A DNA stretch of 64,000 nucleotides from a phage, in sequence record PX880099.1; one strand, written 5' to 3'. Positions 46,791 to 59,391 of the stretch are shown here, piece by piece. How positions within the stretch are numbered: position 1 is the first letter of the stretch; each line of letters opens with the position of its first letter. The notes under the pieces are model-generated. The model saw nothing but the letters and a program-made list of their open reading frames with translations. It was not told where the DNA came from and made no database searches. The position numbers and the translations under genes are program-made.

Positions 46791-47606
46791 TTATTTGTTT
46801 AAGTGGTCTTCGACCATTTTAATGAAACCTTCATTGCTGAAGGCTGTTGCAGCTTTTTCTCGGTAAACAAAAACTCCACGATCTTCATAGAGAAGTGTTT
46901 CTTCGTAATTAACTCCAGGGTTAACTACAACCATTTTTGTACCCATACTAAGCGCAGGGAATAATTCCCAATTAAAATTGATAACTTGGTTTGAACATCC
47001 TACTACTACAACCAAATCTTGCATGGTCAAAGTATCGAACAAGTGAGCCATATCTGCATACAAAGGTGCAGCCTCACCAAAAAATACAACATTAGGCTTC
47101 ACCCAGTTATAATCATCTATGTTTATACTATTGTAACCAATATCTACCAGTGTTTTGTAATCTCCAGGATGCATACGGTAAACTACTTCAGGAAGATATC
47201 CGTGCACGTGAATAACAGAATCTCTGTCTACACCTGCTCGCTCTAATAGATCATCAACGTTTGTCGTCAAGTTTACTACTTGGTTAGGATATTCCTTAAA
47301 CCACTTTGCTATTTGAATATGTGCAGCATTAGGTTGTACATCTTTAAGCTCAACACGTCTTTTGTTATAAAATTCGTGTGTTTTGGCATACAAATCCATA
47401 CCGTTCTCGTCTACACCACCGACCACTGGAAGATCTGGAGATGTTCTAACACGATAACCTGCTTGGAAAGCTCCAATATCGCAGACCTCTTCTAAATCAT
47501 ATTCTTCCCATAAGGCACGACCACTATCGGTGTCTGTTCGGAATGTTCTAATCCCACTATCTGCACTTAAACCTGCACCGCTTACAAAAATCACTCGTCT
47601 TGGCAT
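46791..47606 (-). CDS. Sir2-family (sirtuin-like) NAD-dependent enzyme lacking an obvious zinc ribbon
   Basis: 271 aa; FVSGAGLSADSGIRTFR, TTNVDDL, VIHVHG, VVFFGE, VVVVGCS. Confidence 0.7.
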   Translation of the reverse strand: MPRRVIFVSGAGLSADSGIRTFRTDTDSGRALWEEYDLEEVCDIGAFQAGYRVRTSPDLPVVGGVDENGMDLYAKTHEFYNKRRVELKDVQPNAAHIQIAKWFKEYPNQVVNLTTNVDDLLERAGVDRDSVIHVHGYLPEVVYRMHPGDYKTLVDIGYNSINIDDYNWVKPNVVFFGEAAPLYADMAHLFDTLTMQDLVVVVGCSNQVINFNWELFPALSMGTKMVVVNPGVNYEETLLYEDRGVFVYREKAATAFSNEGFIKMVEDHLNK

Positions 47607-48082: not shown

Positions 48083-48140
48083 ATTCCCTCCTATAAAAGA
48101 AAAGCCCCCTGAAACAGGAGGCTTTGTTCAGATATCGGCA

Positions 48141-48794
48141 CTATACCAGACTTTCAAGGTATTTGTCAAGGGCTTCTTGATCACCTTGACAAACATAGCA
48201 ACGGAAGTCTTGAGCCGAAGGTTGTTTATTTTCATCCCAGTCCCAATAAACATTACCCTTATAACGTGAACCAGGAAACTCAAAAGAGGCTGTATGTGTA
48301 ATGTATCCTGGGCCACCAGTGAAATCACAGAATGAGAATTGGGGGTATGCCGCCTTTACTGCCTCAATAAACCAAGCTTTACGATCTAAAGCTTCATTGA
48401 TGCTATACGCATGTCTCTCCATTTCTTCCCACGTTTTCCAGACACTTCTTTCATCAGGAGAAAAGACAAGCCATTCTGGAAGGTAGAGAGTGTCATAGTA
48501 ATCATCATATTCGATCTCGGAGGCGCACGAGGCTGACTCCTCCAGTCTTGAGTAATCAAAAGCAGAATATACCCACCAACCATCTTCCAGTAAGGCTTTG
48601 ATAGGGACGAAGCCTTTATCAGCATATTGATCGAATTGTTTGACACGGTGGCTTGTGCAGTCTTCAAACTCACATTCTAAACGATATGACCCTTTTCGAC
48701 GAGCCTCAAGACCGTGTGTACTGAAAATAACAACACTTCCTTCACCATCATTACGATCTACTTGATAAGCAACTACTGGTTTTGAATTTGACAT
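48141..48794 (-). CDS. hypothetical protein
   Basis: 217 aa ORF, SD AAGGAGAAA. Confidence 0.55.
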   Translation of the reverse strand: MSNSKPVVAYQVDRNDGEGSVVIFSTHGLEARRKGSYRLECEFEDCTSHRVKQFDQYADKGFVPIKALLEDGWWVYSAFDYSRLEESASCASEIEYDDYYDTLYLPEWLVFSPDERSVWKTWEEMERHAYSINEALDRKAWFIEAVKAAYPQFSFCDFTGGPGYITHTASFEFPGSRYKGNVYWDWDENKQPSAQDFRCYVCQGDQEALDKYLESLV

Positions 48795-49477
48795 TATTTC
48801 TCCTTATCTAGAAGATTATTAGACAAAAACACTGCACGGGCAAAACCACGTGCTGTTAGTGATCTAAGTTGTTTTGTTTTTGCACTAGCTCCACCTAAGC
48901 TTTTCCAACCCCAGAAGCAGCCTATATGATCTACTGGTTTCTTCACTGGTTGAACAAAACCATTGCCGTGCCAAATACAAGTTTTCTTTGTATACCCATC
49001 ACGGGTAGGCATTTTAGGATGAAAGCTTCCTTCCTCTTCAAACAAATACCCACCATACTCATAAGGATCAAAGTAAAAATCGGGTTTACGCCATAAGGTT
49101 GAAAGTTTACCTACTGGGTTCTCAATCATCCAAGGAACATTATATTTGTTACCCAAAGCTTCCACTACACGAATATTAGCTAAAGCTTCATCTAATTCCT
49201 CTGTGCTACGTTCGTGTTTGCTACCACTACCTGCTAACATAGTGCAAGGTGGAAATCCAAAAATAATATCGGGTTTAGGTATCCCATAATCTTCAGGGTT
49301 GAATGTAGAATCTATCCAGGCATTCACATAGGTTATGTTTGGGTGCTCCATCCTAACCTCGTATTTACCGTGATCCCCTTCATCAGCGTTTACACAAAAA
49401 CACTTGTGACCTGCTTCGGCATAACGTAACACCATGATCCCAGATCCGTCAAACATAGACAAAACTGTTTTACTCAT
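48794..49477 (-). CDS. compact DNA (cytosine-5)-methyltransferase-like protein
   Basis: 227 aa from ATG (MSKTVL) after GGAGGGG; motif I LSMFDGSG, motif IV FGFPPC, ENPVG. Confidence 0.55.
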   Translation of the reverse strand: MSKTVLSMFDGSGIMVLRYAEAGHKCFCVNADEGDHGKYEVRMEHPNITYVNAWIDSTFNPEDYGIPKPDIIFGFPPCTMLAGSGSKHERSTEELDEALANIRVVEALGNKYNVPWMIENPVGKLSTLWRKPDFYFDPYEYGGYLFEEEGSFHPKMPTRDGYTKKTCIWHGNGFVQPVKKPVDHIGCFWGWKSLGGASAKTKQLRSLTARGFARAVFLSNNLLDKEK

Positions 49478-49865
49478 TACCCCTCCATTCAAGACAAGCC
49501 ATAACTTTACGCCAATCACTTTCTGTAAGAAAAATCTCGTTTGCTTTCTTCCACAAATCTAAATCGTGAAGGGTTGGAATACGATATGTTAGTTCACAGA
49601 ATCTATGCTCTTCTTCTGTAATATAACCAAAATGCAGAGCCACATCGTGAAACCAACACCAACCATGCATCTCTCGAACAACATGGTCATGTTGAGACAT
49701 TGTTTTATGCCGTAAACCTAACCAACAAGGAACGGATACTTTAGTAGTCTTTAATCTGTGATCAACAGTATTAGAGTATTCAATAATAGCTGTCAGTTTC
49801 AATCGTGCTTTTTCTAAATCCTCATGCGTCACTTTGAAATAACTTTCTGAAAGATATCCACACAT
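49470..49865 (-). CDS. hypothetical protein
   Basis: ATG (MCGYLSE) after GAAGGAGG; track start is TTG. Confidence 0.5.
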   Translation of the reverse strand: MCGYLSESYFKVTHEDLEKARLKLTAIIEYSNTVDHRLKTTKVSVPCWLGLRHKTMSQHDHVVREMHGWCWFHDVALHFGYITEEEHRFCELTYRIPTLHDLDLWKKANEIFLTESDWRKVMACLEWRGNE

Positions 49866-49866
49866 A

Positions 49867-50808
49867 TTAATAACCTCCTTCAAAAGGCTTTACTACATGT
49901 TGATTAGCTTTAAAACGTTCAACATAGTCGTTTTCACCCATGTTTTCATATAGTTTAGTAACAACATAAAAGTTTTCCCAAGCATATTCCCTAAACCAAC
50001 CACTAGTGATGGATGTGCAGACTTTAGATAAAGCCATTATAAAACTTTGCTTAGGGGTTGGACCTCCGATCTCTTCACCGAAAGGAATTTGTGAACGTTC
50101 CAAAGCCAAAACACACGCTTCTTCATAAACACCTAACAGGCGCACATGTTTTGGTTGAGCAAAAAACTTTTCTTTGCTGGTCATAACTTCACTTCCATCT
50201 TTCATATAAGATTTATATGCTGGAGCATCCATTACCGCGATTGCTTCATGGATAGAATCATGATCATAAACATACGGAACCTCATCACCTTTAAAGAAGT
50301 CTTTACTTTTTACGTTTAAGTTTGGATGAGAGTAAGTGTATGTTTCTTTCTCACGCAACTCATAAATACTCTTAAGATTTTCTGGGATCTTTGCGCCCAG
50401 TGATCGCATGAAATGAATATCTTTCATAGTTTTAAAGAAGTGAGGACTATCCTTTTTAAAACGATGACTCATTTTAAGAAGGTAGAGCACATCTAAAGGA
50501 GCAACAACGTGTCCAGCGTAAGTTCGACGAATATCATCAGAGTCTTCACAATAACTAATCAAAGCTTCTGTGCTATCTCCTTGAGAAGCAATATCGTATT
50601 CCAAATGTGCACCAGCTATCATTTTGACATGGCCTTTGTTCCCTTTACGTTCTACAAGTTCAACAAACTCATCTTGAGAGAACATTTTTGATAATTCTTC
50701 CCACTCTTGTTCTGTACACAGGTAATCTAGATCTACACAAGGGCGATACAAGTCTTTTCCCATGTCCATAGCATGAATTTGTAATGCACGGCTACCAATT
50801 AACACCAT
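49867..50808 (-). CDS. hypothetical protein, fold unassigned
   Basis: 313 aa ORF, SD GAGGAGAAA; N-terminal IGSRAL...DLD loosely reminiscent of a nucleotidyltransferase motif. Confidence 0.5.
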   Translation of the reverse strand: MVLIGSRALQIHAMDMGKDLYRPCVDLDYLCTEQEWEELSKMFSQDEFVELVERKGNKGHVKMIAGAHLEYDIASQGDSTEALISYCEDSDDIRRTYAGHVVAPLDVLYLLKMSHRFKKDSPHFFKTMKDIHFMRSLGAKIPENLKSIYELREKETYTYSHPNLNVKSKDFFKGDEVPYVYDHDSIHEAIAVMDAPAYKSYMKDGSEVMTSKEKFFAQPKHVRLLGVYEEACVLALERSQIPFGEEIGGPTPKQSFIMALSKVCTSITSGWFREYAWENFYVVTKLYENMGENDYVERFKANQHVVKPFEGGY

Positions 50809-50838
50809 AATATTTCTCCTCTATTGGTTGATAGGTTA

Positions 50839-50868
50839 AGTTTATCAAGCTTCCAGATTCCTGTCAAT
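50839..50868 (-). promoter_or_regulatory. sigma70-type promoter (TTGACA-17/18-TAAACT) on minus strand
   Basis: Reverse complement TTGACAGGAATCTGGAAGCTTGATAAACT just downstream of the terminator. Confidence 0.45.
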
Positions 50869-50890
50869 AAAAAACCCGCCGAAGCGGGTT
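50869..50890 (-). terminator. rho-independent terminator (ACCCGC-TTCG-GCGGGT plus T-run)
   Basis: Same sequence as the plus-strand terminator at 46128-46150. Confidence 0.65.
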
Positions 50891-50898
50891 ATTATTTA

Positions 50899-51171
50899 CT
50901 AACACATTGAGGAAGAAGAGATCCAAACACCTCTTGTGGTTAAACCATTTTCATCCAACTCTACACCATAATCTTCACAAATGAAATCAATATAGTGATC
51001 TGCGGCTGGCGTTCCTGTAGGGTAATAAGTTTCTCCGTTACCGTAGTCACCTATCCAAGCTTGTTCCTGGAACTGTTCACAAAGTTCTTCAATTTCCTTA
51101 CGAAACTTTCTTTGTGCTTGTTCCATCTCTTTAACTTTCTTTTTTATCAGCAGTTCGCCTTCAGATTCCAC
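50899..51171 (-). CDS. paralog family C member 1, small acidic protein (GTG start)
   Basis: C-terminus GVWISSSSMC shared with two neighbours. Confidence 0.5.
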   Translation of the reverse strand: MESEGELLIKKKVKEMEQAQRKFRKEIEELCEQFQEQAWIGDYGNGETYYPTGTPAADHYIDFICEDYGVELDENGLTTRGVWISSSSMC

Positions 51172-51180
51172 AATCTCTCC

Positions 51181-51399
51181 TTAACAGCTACTACTGTGCC
51201 AAACGCCTTGAGAATTAACGACGAAACCATCATCACCTTCACCATAACAAGAAGAGGATTGCCAATCTTCAAAACAGATTGCGTCATTTTCTAAACTAAG
51301 ACCAAAACCAGCATCTTCAGCTTCTTTTGTAAGTTCGTCCACTAAAGCCATAATAGCTTGGGCTTTTTCAGTTAATTCTTCAACATTACGATCACTCAT
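51181..51399 (-). CDS. paralog family C member 2, small acidic protein
   Basis: ATG (MSDRNVEE) after GGAGGAG; C-terminus GVWHSSSC. Confidence 0.5.
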   Translation of the reverse strand: MSDRNVEELTEKAQAIMALVDELTKEAEDAGFGLSLENDAICFEDWQSSSCYGEGDDGFVVNSQGVWHSSSC

Positions 51400-51674
51400 T
51401 AGTATTTCTCCTCCGGTTGGAAAACTGAACGACAAGCCCACATACTAGCTTCTTTTAAATGTTTAATAGCACAACGGATTTGATCAATACGTTCGTATGC
51501 AAGATCTAATTCTTTTTCTGTGCCGTCAAAAGACCCATGATATGCTTCACAATACTCTTCCTCTAAAGCTTTGAAGATTAAACCTAAACGCTCTTCTGCA
51601 TCTTTAATAGCGTTAACCTTGCCAATCTTATCGTCAGTATGCGCCTTATAACCTTTGATATCTTCGATTCCCAC
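51399..51674 (-). CDS. hypothetical protein (GTG start)
   Basis: GTG after TAGGAGG; track start is TTG. Confidence 0.4.
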   Translation of the reverse strand: MGIEDIKGYKAHTDDKIGKVNAIKDAEERLGLIFKALEEEYCEAYHGSFDGTEKELDLAYERIDQIRCAIKHLKEASMWACRSVFQPEEKY

Positions 51675-51685
51675 TTTACCTCCTA

Positions 51686-51883
51686 TTAACAACTTAAAGA
51701 AGATGGATGCCAATTTGTTCCAGTATTCTCATTTTCATCTTCTGGATCATAATAACCACCCATCCCATATTCAGGGGAGAAACGGAAACCTTTACCAGTC
51801 TCATCTGCTAACTGCTCTGCTTCCGCTAAAGCCTCATAAGCTGCTTTTACGGCTTCTTCTACTGTTTTAAACTTGGTCGTCAT
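51686..51883 (-). CDS. paralog family C member 3, small acidic protein
   Basis: C-terminus NWHPSSLSC; SD GGAGAGGAG. Confidence 0.5.
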   Translation of the reverse strand: MTTKFKTVEEAVKAAYEALAEAEQLADETGKGFRFSPEYGMGGYYDPEDENENTGTNWHPSSLSC

Positions 51884-52157
51884 AAAATTTCTCCTCTCCT
51901 AAAGACATGTTGACATGAAATGCACGATATGTAAATTCGTTGTCCGTTGTGTTTGAATAAAACTCAAATTGAACAACACCGTCTTGAGAAGACAGATACA
52001 TGCCAATTTGAACTGTTCCTTCTGGTACCAGGTAAGCATACTCTGGACGTAGTGTTACATTGTAAAAATAAAGTTCCCCAACACCCATTTCATCCCAAGC
52101 TTCCCAAGCGGTAACGAAGTTACTTTCAAAACTTGTTACTGATCCGAACTCTGCCAT
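51867..52157 (-). CDS. hypothetical protein
   Basis: 96 aa ORF, SD GAGGAGG. Confidence 0.5.
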   Translation of the reverse strand: MAEFGSVTSFESNFVTAWEAWDEMGVGELYFYNVTLRPEYAYLVPEGTVQIGMYLSSQDGVVQFEFYSNTTDNEFTYRAFHVNMSLGEEKFYDDQV

Positions 52158-52648
52158 AAAACCTCCTCAATCTTGTAGTTTGACTCCATCTCCAACACAT
52201 TTCCACGAACGTCTCTCCGAAGAAAGGCATAAGCTTTATTAGGTATTGTAGACTCATATTTAACCATATCTGGCACAGCAAAAGATACTACTACTCCTGC
52301 TGGGCTTCTGTCAAGAGCCTTATTAATATTTCTAAGGATATCGTTAGCCAAGATTTCTGCCAATTCTCCAAGAACAGTTTCGGTTATATCTTTATATCCC
52401 ATTAAGTATTTGTTGATATCTTTCATCTCTGTATTGTTCAGAGTATAGTCCAAAGGATAGAAATTCAAAGCGGAGTCACTTTTATGTGTCCACATGAAAT
52501 GCACCCGATCCGAGCAGAATCGTAACCCTCTGTGAAGAATATCTTCTACAACAGGGAGAATTTCTTTTGTCACATCATTAACCATGTTGTAATCTAAGAT
52601 TTCTGCCAAGTTTGTTCTTTGTTCACCACGTTTACGTTTAGGAATCAC
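52136..52648 (-). CDS. hypothetical protein (GTG start)
   Basis: 170 aa ORF. Confidence 0.45.
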   Translation of the reverse strand: MIPKRKRGEQRTNLAEILDYNMVNDVTKEILPVVEDILHRGLRFCSDRVHFMWTHKSDSALNFYPLDYTLNNTEMKDINKYLMGYKDITETVLGELAEILANDILRNINKALDRSPAGVVVSFAVPDMVKYESTIPNKAYAFLRRDVRGNVLEMESNYKIEEVLWQSSDQ

Positions 52649-53219
52649 TTGTTATTGCCCTCATTACCAAAGGTCGTAGAAAATCGTAAATCTCTTGTTT
52701 TGTTTTCCCACGAATGTTTAAACAAGGAACATTATTGGCTTTAGCTATCTTCCAAGCCGTAGCTGTTCCACCTTTTGCATCTCCATGTTTATCAGTATTA
52801 GCACAAGCCAACAAGAAACATGATGGAGCAGGATTCTCCAAATCTCTACCTAACACTTGATGCACATTACGTTGGTGCAATTTTCTAGCACCCTGCTTAA
52901 GCTTTTCATAGGCTGGGTGAACATCTTTGATCCATTGCACAGAGATAGCATAGTTCATTGTATCTGGTTTTGCAAGAACAATAACATCCCCTGGAATCTG
53001 ATTACCTTTGAAATTTTCCCAAGGAACATAAATCTCCTTGTTAGTAGGATTTTCAGACTCTTGGACACCTGTTTCAAAAGCAGAATCACTACCCTCTGCC
53101 TTCCCAGACCTTAATTTAAACCCAAGGTTTGAAAGCCATTTCCCTATGCCTACCATCAAAGCCCACTCTTCTTCGGATATGTCTCTACTTCCAACTCCCG
53201 TATAGAACAGTTCTGCCAT
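52638..53219 (-). CDS. DprA/SLOG-like Rossmann-fold protein
   Basis: ATG (MAELFYTGVGSR) after GAGGTG; TGVGSRDIS and LRSGKAEGSDSAFETG resemble the DprA nucleotide-binding core. Confidence 0.4.
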   Translation of the reverse strand: MAELFYTGVGSRDISEEEWALMVGIGKWLSNLGFKLRSGKAEGSDSAFETGVQESENPTNKEIYVPWENFKGNQIPGDVIVLAKPDTMNYAISVQWIKDVHPAYEKLKQGARKLHQRNVHQVLGRDLENPAPSCFLLACANTDKHGDAKGGTATAWKIAKANNVPCLNIRGKTKQEIYDFLRPLVMRAITSDS

Positions 53220-53226
53220 AATCACC

Positions 53227-53535
53227 TCAACAAGTAATTTCAAAAGGTGTATAGGGTTCCGTATTTCTCATGATCCAAGGACTGCTAGGATTGCTCGGAT
53301 CATAAGGACCGAAAGGTTTTATGGTAGGTTGTGTTTCTTTCTTCTGAATCTCTTCAAAAATACGACGAAGTTCAGAATATTCTTGATCCACCATAAGATT
53401 CGGTGCATCTGATTCTACAGCTTGCAGGTTATTTTCCTTAAAAACAACCTCACGAACAAGATTAACATCCTCTGTTTCTAAGATAACTTCTTTACGGATA
53501 TTACCTACACTTTGAATAATTGTAATCTTATACAT
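53227..53535 (-). CDS. hypothetical protein
   Basis: 102 aa ORF, SD GAGGAGG. Confidence 0.5.
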   Translation of the reverse strand: MYKITIIQSVGNIRKEVILETEDVNLVREVVFKENNLQAVESDAPNLMVDQEYSELRRIFEEIQKKETQPTIKPFGPYDPSNPSSPWIMRNTEPYTPFEITC

Positions 53536-54278
53536 TAATCCTCCTCAAGAGTTGAATAAAATTGAAGACCACCGTCCATATCGAAATAAGCAAATGTTAA
53601 GTTATTATTGAACACAGATCCAGTATCCATATAAACACGATTCGCATTGATAATAGGTGTTTTTACATAAGAGTGTCCATGAAACACATAATCCACACCC
53701 ATCACAACAGGAAGTTTCATTCCCTCTTTAGCACAGTCTACCATGTCTCTGTCCCACATAAGTGCTTCAGCAAAACGGTTTTCCTGTGTTTTTGTCATCT
53801 TCAAAATGTATTCTGGAATATCTGTTACAGGGAGATATTCCAAAGAAGATGGATACCCACCATGAATAAACGCAAGTTTCATGCCTCTGTAGTTAACAAT
53901 GAGAACAACAGGTAAATCTTCTGTCATCATTGCTAAGGCTGTAGCTCCTTCTTCACCACATTCTTCAAGGACCGTATATCCTCCATTTTGATACCAACAC
54001 TCGAAGTAGCTACGATCTCCTTCCAGCATACCTTTAATCATCATATCTTCATGATTTCCACGAACAGCGTAGCGATTGTGTTTACGAGTAAATTCTAAAA
54101 CACAACGAAAGTTTTGCTTTCCACGGTCAGTAAGATCTCCTAAAGATACAACTACATCTGTATCTCGGATACCTAACTTTGCCTTTCCTTTTTCATACAA
54201 ATTATAACAACCGTGTAGATCTCCAATTATAAAAAGATCTTGATCGCTTTTAACAGTAATTTCTCTGTGTATGATCAC
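53535..54278 (-). CDS. Ser/Thr protein phosphatase (calcineurin-like metallophosphoesterase)
   Basis: GDLHG, GDLTDRG, GNHE motifs; GTG start after GAGGAGGA. Confidence 0.8.
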   Translation of the reverse strand: MIIHREITVKSDQDLFIIGDLHGCYNLYEKGKAKLGIRDTDVVVSLGDLTDRGKQNFRCVLEFTRKHNRYAVRGNHEDMMIKGMLEGDRSYFECWYQNGGYTVLEECGEEGATALAMMTEDLPVVLIVNYRGMKLAFIHGGYPSSLEYLPVTDIPEYILKMTKTQENRFAEALMWDRDMVDCAKEGMKLPVVMGVDYVFHGHSYVKTPIINANRVYMDTGSVFNNNLTFAYFDMDGGLQFYSTLEED

Positions 54279-54604
54279 TTATCCTCCTCAAAATCTAAGA
54301 AAATAAAAATATTTACCTTTCCTTCAATCTCTTGTTCTAAAACAAGATCGGCAAATTCTGCATAAGCTTTCTCTTCAACTTTTTCAATATGTTCTGCGGC
54401 ATCTTTAAAAGGTGTATCCCCATCCACCTTTACTAATAAGAAAAGAGATCGCATTTCGACGCTTTTACTGTTACGAGGAAGGAAATCTACAGCTTCAACA
54501 ATTCTCCAACCCAAATAGCCAGGGGTTTTATGAATCTCCCCTAAATACTTTTCTAAGATTTTACGACCCTCGTCGATAAGGGCTTGTTCTGTAGTAATTT
54601 CCAT
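54275..54604 (-). CDS. hypothetical protein
   Basis: 109 aa ORF, SD GAGGAGGAAGG. Confidence 0.5.
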   Translation of the reverse strand: MEITTEQALIDEGRKILEKYLGEIHKTPGYLGWRIVEAVDFLPRNSKSVEMRSLFLLVKVDGDTPFKDAAEHIEKVEEKAYAEFADLVLEQEIEGKVNIFIFLDFEEDK

Positions 54605-54614
54605 TCCTTCCTCC

Positions 54615-55205
54615 TCAAATTATTAACGAAACCGCATGACTAAATCTTGGTTCAGATATAACCTCTGCTACAGTCACATATGTATCGTGCAGCCAAAAAG
54701 ATTCTACTCTACAAACACAAATACCGTTGATAATGAAATCTACACAGGATTTATTATTTTCGCACACCTGTTGACTATAAACAACCCCTAAAGAGTCATA
54801 AAGTGATCTCACTGTTGCTATCATTTCATCTGTTTCGTCTTCCTGTGAAACAAAGAAAACGAATACAGACAAGTTATTAGCGAAAGTATTGCTATTCTCT
54901 ACTTCAACCGACTTACAAGGTAAAAAGGAGTAATATTTACCGCTAGGTATCAATTTCGCCTCAACCTGGTTAAGTATGCTTTGAGATGGTTTTGTTACAT
55001 AAAAAAGATTTTCTGTTGGGTTTTCAACATTACTCCTTACTATGCAACGAGTGGGGTTCGAAGGATCAAAAACATGATCGAAATCGACACACACAGGTAA
55101 GTTAACAACTTTAAACTTTTTGCTAAGAATGCTTACTGCTGTAAAAATCAAACCAGCATTTATTTTGCCAGTGAAAGTTGAACGCATAACTACTCCTCGG
55201 ATCAT
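54615..55205 (-). CDS. hypothetical protein
   Basis: 196 aa ORF, ATGA-coupled. Confidence 0.5.
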   Translation of the reverse strand: MIRGVVMRSTFTGKINAGLIFTAVSILSKKFKVVNLPVCVDFDHVFDPSNPTRCIVRSNVENPTENLFYVTKPSQSILNQVEAKLIPSGKYYSFLPCKSVEVENSNTFANNLSVFVFFVSQEDETDEMIATVRSLYDSLGVVYSQQVCENNKSCVDFIINGICVCRVESFWLHDTYVTVAEVISEPRFSHAVSLII

Positions 55206-55396
55206 TCTACCAAAGAGAATTCCGCCTCTTCCAGGTAGATTACAGACCTTGTTGCATGATATTTAACGCTCCAGAAATTACCTTCGCGCCGTAAAAGTAT
55301 CTCATTCACATCAAGATTGCTTAGAAAAACCATATAACTTAAAGCTTGTTGACGCGTTGAGAATTGTTTCTCTAAAAGTTCTTCTCCGCTCTGCAT
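55202..55396 (-). CDS. hypothetical protein
   Basis: 64 aa ORF, SD AAGGAGGG. Confidence 0.5.
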   Translation of the reverse strand: MQSGEELLEKQFSTRQQALSYMVFLSNLDVNEILLRREGNFWSVKYHATRSVIYLEEAEFSLVE

Positions 55397-55407
55397 AATC
55401 CCTCCTT

Positions 55408-55434
55408 AAAATACTCCCTCCGAAAAGGGAGTAT
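55408..55434 (-). terminator. terminator-like hairpin
   Basis: ATACTCCC-N8-GGGAGTAT; followed on minus strand by ATTTTAAGG. Confidence 0.4.
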
Positions 55435-55441
55435 AAGTATA

Positions 55442-55645
55442 TCACGTAGTTGTTATGTTGTCTTCTTGGATACTAGAATCCACTTCTGCAAACATATCTT
55501 CTGCACTGTAATTATTTCCAGTCCAGCGTGATAAAAGGACAGCACCAATCTCTTTTGCATGAGATTCGGACTCCGCATAAACGTTAGTCCCAGTGTCACC
55601 TTTTTTCTTTTCATGTGCATAAATGCAGTAATAATTGTAAGCCAT
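55442..55645 (-). CDS. hypothetical protein
   Basis: 67 aa ORF. Confidence 0.5.
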   Translation of the reverse strand: MAYNYYCIYAHEKKKGDTGTNVYAESESHAKEIGAVLLSRWTGNNYSAEDMFAEVDSSIQEDNITTT

Positions 55646-55881
55646 TAGTCTTCCCAGTCATTGTCCTCGGTAGAGTGAACCAAAGCTCGCACGATACCAC
55701 CGTAATCTACTGCCTGATTTGCAGCATGTTCGGCATAAACTTCAATGGCTTTTTTGAAGAAAAGAGCAGTAGCTGCTTCAATATTATCCATTTCGCCATC
55801 TACATCAGTAGAAAGTGAAAGGTTGAGGCTTTCATCTACTTCATCAAAATCAATAGCCACTGTCATAATTAGTTTACCCAT
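55645..55881 (-). CDS. hypothetical acidic protein
   Basis: 78 aa ORF, SD AAGGAGTG. Confidence 0.5.
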   Translation of the reverse strand: MGKLIMTVAIDFDEVDESLNLSLSTDVDGEMDNIEAATALFFKKAIEVYAEHAANQAVDYGGIVRALVHSTEDNDWED

Positions 55882-55893
55882 AGTTCACACTCC

Positions 55894-56403
55894 TTAAACA
55901 AAATAAAATGGTTGAGAGAGGCCCAAACGATTCTTTGGGTCGTATACATACCAAGCGTATGCTGTCTTATCTGTTCCACCTGCAACAAACGAAGGCCGTT
56001 CTGAAAGGACTATAAGGTTCGTTGGTGGATTCTTTTGATGGAACTCTCGTCGTTTCTTTGACTCCAAGAAGCCCAACCGAAGAAGATAAATACAAACATC
56101 CGCCTCTTTTAAGCTCTTTTCCAAGAACTCCATTGCTAACTTGAATGGAGGATTTGTGATTATAATGTCGGGACGATTTTCCCATTCATGACTAAAATAA
56201 TCTTTACCTTCTTCAAGTTCACAATATTCTGAACCTTCAGGAAAATGGCGATAAATCGCTTCAGCTTCACCTCTACAAGGTTCTGCAAAAACCCAACCTT
56301 CTTCCTTTAGATTTTTGAAATCTATAACACTAAACAAACTATTGATTGCTTTTTGCGGTGTCGGATAATAATCGCTCGTTGGGCGATCATAATCTAATGC
56401 CAT
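55894..56403 (-). CDS. small SAM-dependent methyltransferase-like protein with NPPF motif (candidate N6-adenine or N4-cytosine DNA MTase)
   Basis: 169 aa; IIITNPPF catalytic-type motif; SD AGAGGAGA. Confidence 0.45.
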   Translation of the reverse strand: MALDYDRPTSDYYPTPQKAINSLFSVIDFKNLKEEGWVFAEPCRGEAEAIYRHFPEGSEYCELEEGKDYFSHEWENRPDIIITNPPFKLAMEFLEKSLKEADVCIYLLRLGFLESKKRREFHQKNPPTNLIVLSERPSFVAGGTDKTAYAWYVYDPKNRLGLSQPFYFV

Positions 56404-56821
56404 CTAAAATCTCCTCTTTTGTAATATTATCCAACTCTTTAAAGGATGAAATCTCATTTAATAATCCTATTTGATCAGCCTCTAGAGGATAAGTGTTTTT
56501 ATCTGTTTTTCTAGACAGAATATCTTCAACAAACTTATCAATAGCCAAAGAAGAATCATAAAATTTTAAAAGTTGGTAATCCATAGGAGATATTTTGTCA
56601 TCTCTTAGAAATATTTCTAACATGTTTTCAGGAGTATCGTGGTTTAGTTTATGTTCACCAAAAATATTAACTTCGTAAACATCTTTGCCAAACCAACGTT
56701 TTTTCTTTTCAACAGTATAGGTTTTTGCCACCAGACCATCTAAACAGTTTCTTGCCCTCTTACATGTTTGACGGTAAGAGTGGATAGCGCCTTCAACAAA
56801 CTTAGCAGGAACTTGTAACAT
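56387..56821 (-). CDS. hypothetical protein
   Basis: 144 aa ORF, SD TAGGAGA. Confidence 0.5.
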   Translation of the reverse strand: MLQVPAKFVEGAIHSYRQTCKRARNCLDGLVAKTYTVEKKKRWFGKDVYEVNIFGEHKLNHDTPENMLEIFLRDDKISPMDYQLLKFYDSSLAIDKFVEDILSRKTDKNTYPLEADQIGLLNEISSFKELDNITKEEILDGIRL

Positions 56822-56837
56822 TATTAATCTCCTATGT

Positions 56838-56861
56838 TTAAGAAATGCCCCCGAAGGGGCA
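56838..56861 (-). terminator. terminator hairpin GCCCC-TTCG-GGGGC (minus strand)
   Basis: Followed on minus strand by TTTCTTAAA. Confidence 0.5.
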
Positions 56862-56866
56862 GTTTG

Positions 56867-57559
56867 TTAAATAGCGGTTCCTTCGAAATCCGCCACATTT
56901 ACGAGATTAATATTTTCAGATTTAGAAGTCAAGTTGTTTTCTGCAACAGATTTTTCTTCAGTATCCGCCTCGTTACCTGCCACGTTACGAGGTTCTTCTT
57001 CACCGTAGGGATTACCGAATTTCAAAAGATTGATTAATTCTTCTTTGGAGAAGTTTTCTAAATCATCGTCTGTTAATTCAATAATCTCGTCTTGTTCTTC
57101 AATAAATGTTTCACCACCAGAAAAAGCATCTCGCTTTTTAGCTACTTCCATAGCCTGTTCTGGTGTTGCCCCTGCATCAAGAGCAGCTAAAGCAAAGTCT
57201 GACCCACTCCCCACTGCATAATATTCTTCATCAATCGGATATGCACGTGTTGGGTTGTTACCTTCGTGCAGGAAAATACGTCCGTCTGGATGAACAACAA
57301 GTGCAATAAACTCTTCATCTTCTTTGTCTGGATCAGAATGAATCATCAAACCAGGGACAGCATCGCGTGCTGCTTCGCACTGTAGATTTTGTTCAAACCA
57401 TTGAAAGAAAGAAAGCACGGAGGTCAGACGACCAGCACCACCTACAAGGTAATCTCCAATTTTTCGGACCTTTTTGAAATTAATAGAATCTACACGTCCA
57501 CCAAAAGTTACCTTACCATCACTCAAAATCTTATTTTTGGTTGCAATAATTGTCGTCAC
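56867..57559 (-). CDS. HslV/proteasome-beta-like Ntn hydrolase with acidic C-terminal extension
   Basis: N-terminus M-TTIIATKNKI (Thr right after initiator), KVRKIG, GGAGR, VGSGSDFALAA pattern; GTG start after GAGGAGG. Confidence 0.55.
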   Translation of the reverse strand: MTTIIATKNKILSDGKVTFGGRVDSINFKKVRKIGDYLVGGAGRLTSVLSFFQWFEQNLQCEAARDAVPGLMIHSDPDKEDEEFIALVVHPDGRIFLHEGNNPTRAYPIDEEYYAVGSGSDFALAALDAGATPEQAMEVAKKRDAFSGGETFIEEQDEIIELTDDDLENFSKEELINLLKFGNPYGEEEPRNVAGNEADTEEKSVAENNLTSKSENINLVNVADFEGTAI

Positions 57560-58059
57560 TATTCTTCCTCCTCTGTTAATGTTTTAAGAACCGCTTTCCC
57601 GCCATTCACATATTTGCAGATGTATTCTATCGCACGTAGTGTCTCTTTGTCAACAAAAATTTGATCAGACGTTGCGAGCGGGTTATTAAGAAGATCACTG
57701 CAATCACGAACAAGCAGTGCTTTCTTATTAAACAAATTACTTAAGAACAGTAACTTCGCCTCTTCTTCTGTTATATGCAGAAGGCTAGGATCGGAGCCAG
57801 CTATTCCTATTATACAATCAAACAAGCTTTCTTTACTATCAGAAAGTTCTTGAAAATGGTTTAAAAGCCAATCTTCTCCTAGACACCAACATTTAAACAT
57901 TTCCAGTTTATCTCGGAGGGTCATATTCTCTAAAGTAAGAGCAATCTCTTTTTCAATATGGTTTACACAAATTTGACGAAATTCGTTAGGTTTTACGAGT
58001 CCCGTTTGATAGCACTCATCTATACCGCTTCTTCCGATAGCTATTGTTGCTACACCCAT
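57559..58059 (-). CDS. hypothetical protein
   Basis: ATG (MGVATIA) after AAGGAGG; track start is TTG. Confidence 0.5.
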   Translation of the reverse strand: MGVATIAIGRSGIDECYQTGLVKPNEFRQICVNHIEKEIALTLENMTLRDKLEMFKCWCLGEDWLLNHFQELSDSKESLFDCIIGIAGSDPSLLHITEEEAKLLFLSNLFNKKALLVRDCSDLLNNPLATSDQIFVDKETLRAIEYICKYVNGGKAVLKTLTEEEE

Positions 58060-58094
58060 CAATCCTCCTTATAAATGGCTTCCCTGCCATGTTA

Positions 58095-58853
58095 TTAAAT
58101 AAACACTTCAGTAATCAGTTTAGACAAACGTCCACGTTTATTATCGTCCGTTGTCAGTTCAACGTATCCAATAAAATCTACAATTGGCTCACGAACACCT
58201 TCTTCATTTTCTGGATACAAAAGTTCCAAAATTTGATGCAGACCATTGCTACGTTTTTTAATTGCATATGTCTGGCGAACATCGCCTAATACAATAACAT
58301 GCGTATTAATACCTGCACGTTCAATAAGAAGTTTAAGTGTTTCTGTTGACATAAGTTGTGCTTCGTCAATAATGACGATTGTATTATCCAGGGTAGCCCC
58401 CAACAAATAGTTAGGAATATTCAATTCGATCTTACCTGATCCAATATCGTTTTCCAATTTGTTGGCTGTCATGAATTGCTGGAAAATACGTTTTGTAGAT
58501 TCATAGTGTGCTGCTAGTTTATCTGTTTTATCCCCAGACAAGAAACCAATCTGGTCATCTCCGACTTCAGTAGGGTTCTTAATAAAAAGTAGTTTACGGA
58601 AGTCTCCTGAACGAAGCATCTGCAAAGCTTTCCATAAAGCAACAGAGGTTTTACCAGTCCCTGCCGGAGCATTTACAACAGTCAGATCATTCCAAATCAT
58701 ACTTTGAACAATCTTATTTTGGTCCCCTTCAGGCATAAATTCATCTAAACGGTAATCGTCATTACCTACCGCTTTTGCTGCATAACGGCTTTCAATCTTT
58801 GCTGAATTAGCCAGTTTCTGCCGTTGTGTTTTAGCTGCGGTTTTATTTCCCAT
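58095..58853 (-). CDS. phoH: PhoH-like ATPase
   Basis: APAGTGKTSVAL Walker A, IVIIDEAQLMS Walker B; ATG (MGNKTAA) after AAGGAG; track N-terminal extension overlaps a terminator hairpin. Confidence 0.8.
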   Translation of the reverse strand: MGNKTAAKTQRQKLANSAKIESRYAAKAVGNDDYRLDEFMPEGDQNKIVQSMIWNDLTVVNAPAGTGKTSVALWKALQMLRSGDFRKLLFIKNPTEVGDDQIGFLSGDKTDKLAAHYESTKRIFQQFMTANKLENDIGSGKIELNIPNYLLGATLDNTIVIIDEAQLMSTETLKLLIERAGINTHVIVLGDVRQTYAIKKRSNGLHQILELLYPENEEGVREPIVDFIGYVELTTDDNKRGRLSKLITEVFI

Positions 58854-58867
58854 AGTAGCACTCCTTT

Positions 58868-58886
58868 TAGAAGGGGCCGAAGCCCC
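58868..58886 (-). terminator. hairpin GGGGC-CGAA-GCCCC downstream of lysozyme gene
   Basis: Identical stem-loop to 46759-46781. Confidence 0.45.
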
Positions 58887-58890
58887 TTTA

Positions 58891-59391
58891 TTAGTTGTAA
58901 GCATCTAAAGTTCCAGAAGTCAGAACTTTAATTACTCGTTCAGCACGGTTTGGCGTCTGGCTATACCATCGGCTTTTACGCATGTTTTTACCTGCTTGAG
59001 TATAATATGCATTGCTGATTAAAGTCAAGCTATTTTGAAACCCTTCAGCACCTTTTAACCCCAACTGGAAAACCATGTTGATTATTCCCAATTTACGAGT
59101 ATCACTAACCTTATCATAGATTGGTGATAAGATAGTACTGTTTTTTATGTCTCTCTTCACTTTTGCAACATCGTCAGCAAAGATTTGACGGGCTTCTTTT
59201 TCTGTGATAACTCCATTAGTCTTACGACCAAGAAGATTATCTAAGATTTGAATAGCCTTTGCTTTATCTTTTATTTTAGTCAGAAGGTGTCCTATGCCGA
59301 CTGTCCAATAACCAAGATGGTCTTGATAAACAGTAAGCTTCAGTCCTTCATCGACTCGTAGCATATCAAACTCATCTACTACTTTAGCCAT
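58891..59391 (-). CDS. T4-type lysozyme (endolysin, GH24-like)
   Basis: LRVDEGLKLTVYQDHLGYWTVGIGHLLTK, INMVFQLG, KSRWYSQTPNRAERV closely parallel T4 lysozyme. Confidence 0.85.
   Translation of the reverse strand: MAKVVDEFDMLRVDEGLKLTVYQDHLGYWTVGIGHLLTKIKDKAKAIQILDNLLGRKTNGVITEKEARQIFADDVAKVKRDIKNSTILSPIYDKVSDTRKLGIINMVFQLGLKGAEGFQNSLTLISNAYYTQAGKNMRKSRWYSQTPNRAERVIKVLTSGTLDAYN

Follow-up and report, generated by a model that had tools for sequence, protein, structure and literature searches.

The 64,000-nucleotide stretch of phage DNA analysed here (the window; sequence record PX880099.1) carries two minus-strand open reading frames (ORFs), termed ORF A and ORF B, whose products are predicted to be unusually small DNA methyltransferases. 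The interval under study, positions 48794-56403, runs from the stop codon of the first to the start codon of the second. The two genes and the Shine-Dalgarno-like sequences that precede them are as follows:

48794-49477, minus strand: ORF A, a predicted compact Dcm-like C5-cytosine DNA methyltransferase of 227 amino acids, PHROG 757
49480-49486, minus strand: Shine-Dalgarno-like GGAGGGG, 3 nucleotides 5' of the ORF A ATG, by direct sequence reading
55894-56403, minus strand: ORF B, a predicted compact gamma-class N6-adenine DNA methyltransferase of 169 amino acids, PHROG 799
56411-56416, minus strand: Shine-Dalgarno-like GAGGAG, 7 nucleotides 5' of the ORF B ATG

A preliminary description of this DNA had reported the motifs FDGSG, PPC and ENPVG in one protein and NPPF in the other. 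These were located at F9-D-G-S-G13, P76-P-C78 and E119-N-P-V-G123 of ORF A, and at N84-P-P-F87 of ORF B. ORF A and ORF B are real genes carrying these motifs, and a motif scan of all ORFs of at least 90 amino acids in the window found such methyltransferase signatures confined to the two. A GTG-extended, 241-amino-acid version of ORF A (to 49519) was rejected because the ATG has a strong ribosome-binding site and is the start used in public annotations.

The 9-kb region is 98-99% identical to the genomes of more than 60 Phapecoctavirus phages, which are phAPEC8-like E. coli myoviruses of the subfamily Stephanstirmvirinae. Phapecoctavirus records already label the two genes 'Dcm', 'DNA methyltransferase' or 'putative DNA methyltransferase'. 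The initial observation is correct and not new: dozens of near-identical genomes carry annotations of the genes, and both families include characterised enzymes. ORF A matches PHROG 757 over residues 1-225 (E=4e-84) and ORF B matches PHROG 799 (E=2.8e-59), both families being labelled DNA methyltransferase. Because of these E-values, together with 870 (ORF A) and 247 (ORF B) homologous clusters at 90% identity, the reality of the genes is far beyond chance.

Nearly all of the ORF A clusters are 215-245 amino acids long. An exhaustive profile search with ORF A yielded 1,910 clusters at 50% identity, of which the best 150 are almost all 200-280 amino acids, and tblastn detected homologues in 1,488 records of phages, spread over Drexlerviridae, Dhillonvirus, Vequintavirus and Klebsiella Webervirus-like phages as well as other groups. 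A Bdellovibrio chromosomal homologue sits among phage-like genes in a prophage-like region. The ORF B clusters range from about 165 to 230 amino acids, with matches in 544 phage records. The description of both proteins as much shorter than typical enzymes is therefore true, and the cluster lengths indicate that small size is a property of each whole family and not the result of truncation. Searches of PDB sequences with both proteins, either as single sequences or as profiles, returned nothing significant. Direct data on methylation in Phapecoctavirus or Justusliebigvirus were sought in the literature and not found; the papers recovered do no more than repeat annotations.

ORF A and the Dcm-like enzyme of phage KarlJaspers

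The ORF A family was examined in an alignment of 30 diverse homologues. Motif I, the FxGxG loop expected to bind S-adenosylmethionine (SAM), corresponds to F9-D-G-S-G13, in which G11, S12 and G13 are invariant, and it aligns with FSGAGG of HaeIII. The catalytic cysteine is predicted to be C78, which in ORF A lies in a PPC motif (FPPCT). Cys78-Thr79 is invariant, the residue before the cysteine varies across the family (P, D, S or Q), and Thr79 takes the place of the glutamine of the usual PCQ. Motif VI, E119-N120-P121, is likewise invariant and is followed by V-G. There is no QxRxR motif VIII; the equivalent strand carries Y162-T-K164-K165-T166, with Lys164 invariant. Near the C-terminus, the stretch TKQLRSLT-x-RGFARAV is invariant and resembles motif IX.

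ORF A resembles the canonical C5-methyltransferases of PF00145 (M.HhaI, M.HaeIII, E. coli Dcm and DNMT3A/B), with which it shares a predicted Rossmann fold and, in the same order, motif I, a motif IV-like cysteine and motif VI. It differs from them in that the proline before the cysteine is not family-conserved, threonine replaces the PCQ glutamine and TKKT replaces QxRxR. A further difference lies in the target-recognition domain, which spans about 80-200 residues in the canonical enzymes. ORF A has no domain of such a size: only about 30 residues separate motif VIII from the motif IX-like C-terminus, the recognition segment being confined to residues ~172-198 between the strand at 166-171 and the RSLT(P/A)RGFARAV helix region, and the chain terminates immediately behind the motif IX-like helix. 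The predicted fold of the catalytic domain is of the C5-methyltransferase type and DNMT3-like, with DNMT3B as the best structural match. An hhalign comparison of the family with an M.HhaI sequence covered motifs I-IV only, at low probability, and was not used as evidence.

A characterised relative of ORF A is found in phage KarlJaspers. Escapers of retron Ec86 isolated from KarlJaspers strain K42 were all mutated in a 711-bp 'Dcm-like C5 cytosine methyltransferase' gene (bioRxiv 10.1101/2023.08.16.553469). Expression of the K42 enzyme raised the 5-methylcytosine (5mC) content of the retron multicopy single-stranded DNA (msDNA), and the modified species matched a 5mC standard by liquid chromatography coupled to mass spectrometry (LC-MS); a C82A/E128A/K175A/K176A quadruple mutant was inactive (10.1101/2023.08.16.553469). 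The authors treated K175 and K176 as substrate-binding residues and superposed the predicted structure of the enzyme on DNMT3A (10.1101/2023.08.16.553469).

In the KarlJaspers genome (Bas06, MZ501090), gene bas06_0055 is 711 bp long and encodes C82, E128, K175 and K176 with the numbering used in that paper. ORF A is 50% identical to its product over the full length (E=4e-72), and C78, E119, K164 and K165 of ORF A correspond to the four mutated residues within the same motifs. Because of this full-length identity and these matching catalytic residues, ORF A is assigned to an experimentally validated family of DNA C5-methyltransferases. Like the KarlJaspers enzyme, the trigger of retron Ec86/Eco1, ORF A is a compact single-domain protein (227 versus 236 amino acids) of the same PHROG with a DNMT3-like predicted fold. 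The host phages are unlike, since KarlJaspers is a siphovirus of the Drexlerviridae and ORF A belongs to a Stephanstirmvirinae myovirus. The mini-recognition segments also differ in part (NPGWAKTGG versus CFWGWKSLGG).

ORF B and the N6-adenine methyltransferase of phage Bas51

ORF B displays the motif order X-I-IV, with Y13-x-T15-P16 followed by E41-P-C43-R-G45 and then T83-N-P-P-F87. Residues T15, E41, P42, C43 and T83-P86 are invariant in the family alignment. An AlphaFold2 model (predicted local distance difference test score, 89.7) consists solely of the catalytic fold; the chain stops at residue 169, directly after the last catalytic-fold strands, and a C-terminal recognition domain is absent. 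Among 30 family members scanned, Pfam models give weak matches to EcoRI_methylase (12 of 30) and Eco57I (3 of 30), both DNA enzymes, compared with one of 30 for MTS. Together, the motifs and the model identify ORF B as a predicted gamma-class N6-adenine methyltransferase composed of the catalytic domain only. In this it is unlike gamma-class M.TaqI, MmeI, the type I HsdM proteins and the Eco57I family, which carry a large C-terminal recognition domain or rely on a separate recognition domain or subunit.

Like the Dam enzymes of E. coli and T4 (alpha-class, PF02086) and phage Dam (PF05869), ORF B probably produces N6-methyladenine (m6A) at GATC. It is not a Dam-family protein: the motif order is that of the gamma class, the chain is about 100 residues shorter and there is no separate DNA-binding domain. 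ORF B itself matches no Dam model, and PF05869 was matched by one of the 30 family members (E=0.0046).

Some members of the ORF B family carry a cysteine-rich insertion of 30-35 residues (CxxC...C...CxC, zinc-ribbon-like) at alignment columns ~170-205. The insertion site coincides with a low-confidence loop, RPSF-x-GG-TD, of the compact forms, and this loop may be the variable DNA-recognition element of the family.

Homology to phage Bas51 informs on the activity of this family. All Bas51 escapers of retrons Asa1 and Squ1 were mutated in an 'N6 adenine methyltransferase', and engineered D69G, D79G or T83P substitutions in this enzyme abolish retron defence (PMC12548924). Native nanopore sequencing of Bas51 DNA revealed a GATC m6A motif that is nearly gone in the T83P mutant; the methods of that paper also quantify a second m6A motif, GTAC, which is unassigned there to any gene (PMC12548924). 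On its own, with no retron present, the Bas51 methyltransferase is already toxic to E. coli.

Bas51 is phage WalterGehring (MZ501111), and its bas51_0176 product (gp176, 177 amino acids) is a homologue of ORF B with 48% identity (E=3e-47). D69, D79 and T83 of gp176 are numbered as in the published study and equal D68, D79 and T83 of ORF B. The two proteins thus belong to the same compact family (PHROG 799) and conserve the motifs along with the three functionally defined residues, although gp176 has NPPY where ORF B has NPPF and the spacing within motif I also differs. Their surroundings are comparable: in Bas51 (MZ501111, 96000-122000) as in the window (55894-58904), the methyltransferase has next to it a protease gene (of ClpP type in Bas51, HslV-like in the window) and a PhoH-like ATPase gene. 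No homologue of ORF A is annotated near bas51_0176 in the 26 kb of Bas51 inspected. By analogy with gp176, the substrate class of the ORF B family can be regarded as settled to be DNA, because GATC m6A on phage DNA is almost gone in the T83P mutant. The Bas51 result also shows that specificity for a 4-bp site is within reach of a family member consisting of the catalytic domain alone.

Target sites, protection and exposure to retrons

Families, motifs and homologues support the view that both genes encode DNA methyltransferases, one of the C5-cytosine and one of the NPPF (N6-adenine) type, as had been proposed from the motifs. The proposed orphan status also holds: scans of ten neighbouring proteins turned up neither a restriction partner nor a defence gene, and none of the neighbours hit a model for restriction or defence. 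When the target-recognition domain was checked, as the preliminary description had advised, neither a normal-sized domain in ORF A nor one in ORF B was seen in the alignments and predicted structures. We consider it probable that ORF A and ORF B are active, orphan, single-domain DNA methyltransferases, likely acting at CCWGG and GATC respectively, and that the protection they confer is narrow. Gene reality, family membership, fold and the conservation of experimentally defined residues were established in this study; DNA methylation activity, GATC specificity and retron triggering come from the papers on the homologues, and that ORF A and ORF B share these specificities and roles is our inference.

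Both proteins would be SAM-dependent, would be made from a minus-strand block of early-type accessory genes and would modify DNA after replication. As a DNMT3-like minimal C5-methyltransferase, ORF A would use Cys78 to attack C6 of a flipped-out cytosine and Glu119 to protonate N3, with Lys164 and Lys165 standing in for the customary QxRxR; the likeliest target of this enzyme is a CCWGG site of the Dcm type. ORF B would be a minimal gamma-class amino-methyltransferase whose TNPPF loop would bind a flipped-out adenine, most likely in GATC, giving a Dam-like function to a protein outside the Dam family. Together the enzymes may keep fast-replicating phage DNA fully methylated at two host-type marks. 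The resulting protection would be directed at enzymes cleaving GATC or CCWGG in unmethylated form, and perhaps at MutH, rather than serving as broad anti-restriction. The two methyltransferases would also lay the phage open to retrons able to detect methylation on their own msDNA.

Site frequencies in the window bear on the breadth of this protection. Several palindromic tetramers have low observed-to-expected ratios (GGCC 0.31, CCGG 0.32, GTAC 0.40, CTAG 0.42), whereas GATC, at 1.10, has the highest ratio of the 16 and CCWGG stands at 1.15. CCSGG does not occur at all (0 observed versus 8.6 expected), and the window lacks 22 of the 64 palindromic hexamers, GGATCC, CTGCAG, GTCGAC and CTCGAG among them. 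These statistics lend weak support to narrow protection of GATC and CCWGG combined with site avoidance elsewhere.

The preliminary description had taken the small size to suggest relaxed or short recognition sites that serve broad anti-restriction protection or regulation. By this account, lack of a recognition domain would leave the enzymes with relaxed, very short or no specificity, as in M.EcoGII, Hia5 or M.CviPI. Both proteins are indeed essentially catalytic domains, with ~30 residues available as a recognition domain in ORF A and none in ORF B. The toxicity of the Bas51 homologue in cells that lack the retron would fit such an activity, and extra target sites could account for the triggering of retrons by both phage homologues in hosts whose own Dam and Dcm leave the retrons silent. 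The characterised homologues nevertheless behave as site-specific enzymes. In Bas51, the m6A lost through the T83P mutation is specifically that at GATC, and the logo of methylation likewise reads GATC (PMC12548924); the KarlJaspers-type enzyme, 50% identical to ORF A, is reported to work at a CCWGG site. Blanket methylation would also make the strong counter-selection of restriction sites in the window unnecessary.

Restriction sensitivity points the same way. EcoKI, EcoRI, EcoRV as well as EcoP1_I are blocked by adenine methylation at their own sites. These four, along with EcoCFT_I and EcoCFT_II, are the six restriction-modification (RM) systems to which the BASEL study found Vequintavirinae and their relatives (phi92-like phages, close to Phapecoctavirus) to be 'exceptionally susceptible'. 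ORF B homologues occur in the Vequintavirus (48% identity) and Justusliebigvirus (85% identity) phages of that study. An adenine methylase lacking sequence specificity would thus have shielded these phages. The argument from RM sensitivity covers the family of ORF B, and reaches that of ORF A only through the statement in the same study that methyltransferase genes are uncorrelated with restriction resistance in Drexlerviridae. Given site-specific homologues, RM-sensitive relatives and avoidance of other sites in the window, the step from small size to broad anti-restriction is not sustained, and we judge relaxed specificity to be unlikely.

Two further explanations concern substrate or product. 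ORF B could be a methyltransferase of RNA (m6A in rRNA or tRNA) or of protein (glutamine), of the METTL5/PH1948/HemK kind, with host translation as its point of action. An alignment to methyltransferases of RNA or protein had been named beforehand as evidence against a DNA substrate, and the predicted structure of ORF B is ambiguous when taken alone: METTL5, PH1948 and Erm reach scores similar to those of TaqI and MmeI. This ambiguity is resolved by the demonstrated DNA activity of the Bas51 homologue: a 48%-identical protein is required for GATC m6A on phage DNA (PMC12548924), and the residues altered in Bas51 escapers are conserved in ORF B. The weak Pfam matches of the family favour DNA enzymes, and the order YxTP, EPCxG, TNPPF matches that of gamma-class DNA amino-methyltransferases. 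We find a role in RNA or protein methylation very improbable. ORF A, in turn, could feed a cytosine hypermodification pathway, either by supplying 5mC to a TET-like oxidase followed by glycosylation or by transferring a carboxymethyl group from carboxy-S-adenosylmethionine (Cx-SAM). Very little credence can be given to this proposal. The ten neighbouring proteins scanned include no dioxygenase (TET), glycosyltransferase or CmoA-like protein, and hence no hypermodification cassette; the product of the K42 homologue matches the 5mC standard by LC-MS (10.1101/2023.08.16.553469); the compact family is present in about 1,500 varied phage genomes, among them small siphoviruses without such a pathway; and relatives are readily restricted (BASEL).

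Several observations weigh against orphan enzymes of CCWGG and GATC specificity. Scanned against Pfam and NCBIfam, both proteins and 30 members per family gave sub-threshold matches only; with PF00145, ORF A reaches 11.6 bits where the cut-off is 22 (E=0.19), and one of 30 family members attains E<0.01. By predicted structure, the RNA m6A enzymes METTL5, PH1948, ErmC' and KsgA are as close to ORF B as are DNA enzymes. The CCWGG site of the K42 enzyme was assumed from E. coli Dcm and is supported only by msDNA site mutants, with no methylome mapping (10.1101/2023.08.16.553469). The lack of avoidance of GATC and CCWGG in the window is equally expected from growth in a dam+ dcm+ host. At 48-50% identity, moreover, the specificities of ORF A and ORF B can differ from those of their characterised homologues. 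Finally, both retron studies were conducted in dam+ dcm+ MG1655, in which the host methylases are no trigger and the compact phage methyltransferases are (10.1101/2023.08.16.553469; PMC12548924). Triggering despite host Dam and Dcm, together with the toxicity of the Bas51 enzyme, hints at activity beyond the host-type sites.

Such activity could take the form of methylation of single-stranded or hairpin DNA, of near-cognate sites, or of the outer cytosine of CCWGG. It would explain retron triggering in dam+ dcm+ cells, the toxicity of the Bas51 enzyme and the insufficiency of host methylation. We put it forward tentatively, as a possibility that is more doubtful than favoured.

If ORF B does act at GATC, a 169-amino-acid protein that reads a 4-bp site without a recognition domain, perhaps as a dimer, would represent an unusual mode of DNA recognition. 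Both families are candidates for the smallest sequence-specific DNA methyltransferases, with a solved structure for neither. For therapeutic phages of the phAPEC8-like group, the proposed specificities predict GATC and CCWGG-type methylation, with only narrow protection from restriction and otherwise site avoidance. In the strains they target, such phages may also fall prey to retrons that sense methylation (Eco1/Ec86, Asa1/Squ1-like).

Transcription units and neighbouring genes

ORF A and ORF B lie 6.4 kb apart within a long minus-strand block of small accessory genes. Their neighbours in the block encode a Sir2-family protein, a DUF7277/DUF7275 protein, a DprA-like protein, a NinI-like phosphatase, an HslV-like peptidase and a PhoH-like protein. 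Pattern matching located the following candidate transcription signals:

56846-56861, minus strand: strong terminator-like hairpin, upstream of the predicted transcription unit of ORF B
50873-50890, minus strand: strong terminator-like hairpin with T-run, between the ORF B and ORF A units
50839-50867, minus strand: sigma-70-like promoter (TTGACA, 17 nucleotides, TG-TAAACT)
48101-48125, minus strand: strong terminator-like hairpin (11-bp stem), end of the predicted ORF A unit

On the minus strand, the hairpin at 50890-50873 is followed by the promoter-like site at 50867-50839, and from these pattern matches the two genes therefore probably belong to different transcription units. The predicted unit that starts from the promoter-like site comprises the DUF7277/DUF7275 gene, a gene for a 131-amino-acid protein, ORF A and a gene for a 217-amino-acid protein. 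The two methyltransferase genes had been placed in the same operon region, which is accurate only loosely: they share one minus-strand block, but distance and the intervening terminator-like and promoter-like sequences separate them.

The first gene of the predicted ORF A unit (49867-50808, minus strand) encodes a 313-amino-acid protein with matches to DUF7277 (E=8e-14) and DUF7275 (E=1e-75), whose N-terminal GS...DLD pattern is reminiscent of pol-beta-type nucleotidyltransferases. The Sir2-family protein (46791-47606, minus strand; PF02146, E=1e-22; PHROG 2162) is found at the end of this block. At 54615-55205 (minus strand), a 196-amino-acid protein carries the PHROG label 'histidyl tRNA synthetase', has no Pfam match and is far too short for a synthetase. 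The DprA-like protein (52638-53243, minus strand; PHROG 768; 193-201 amino acids) likewise has no Pfam match.

Three small acidic ORFs at 50899-51171, 51181-51441 and 51686-51883 (minus strand; 90, 86 and 65 amino acids) share a C-terminal W-x-(S)SS-x-C pattern, their C-termini being GVWISSSSMC, GVWHSSSC and TNWHPSSLSC. The three may be paralogues whose C-terminal cysteine is modified or reactive.

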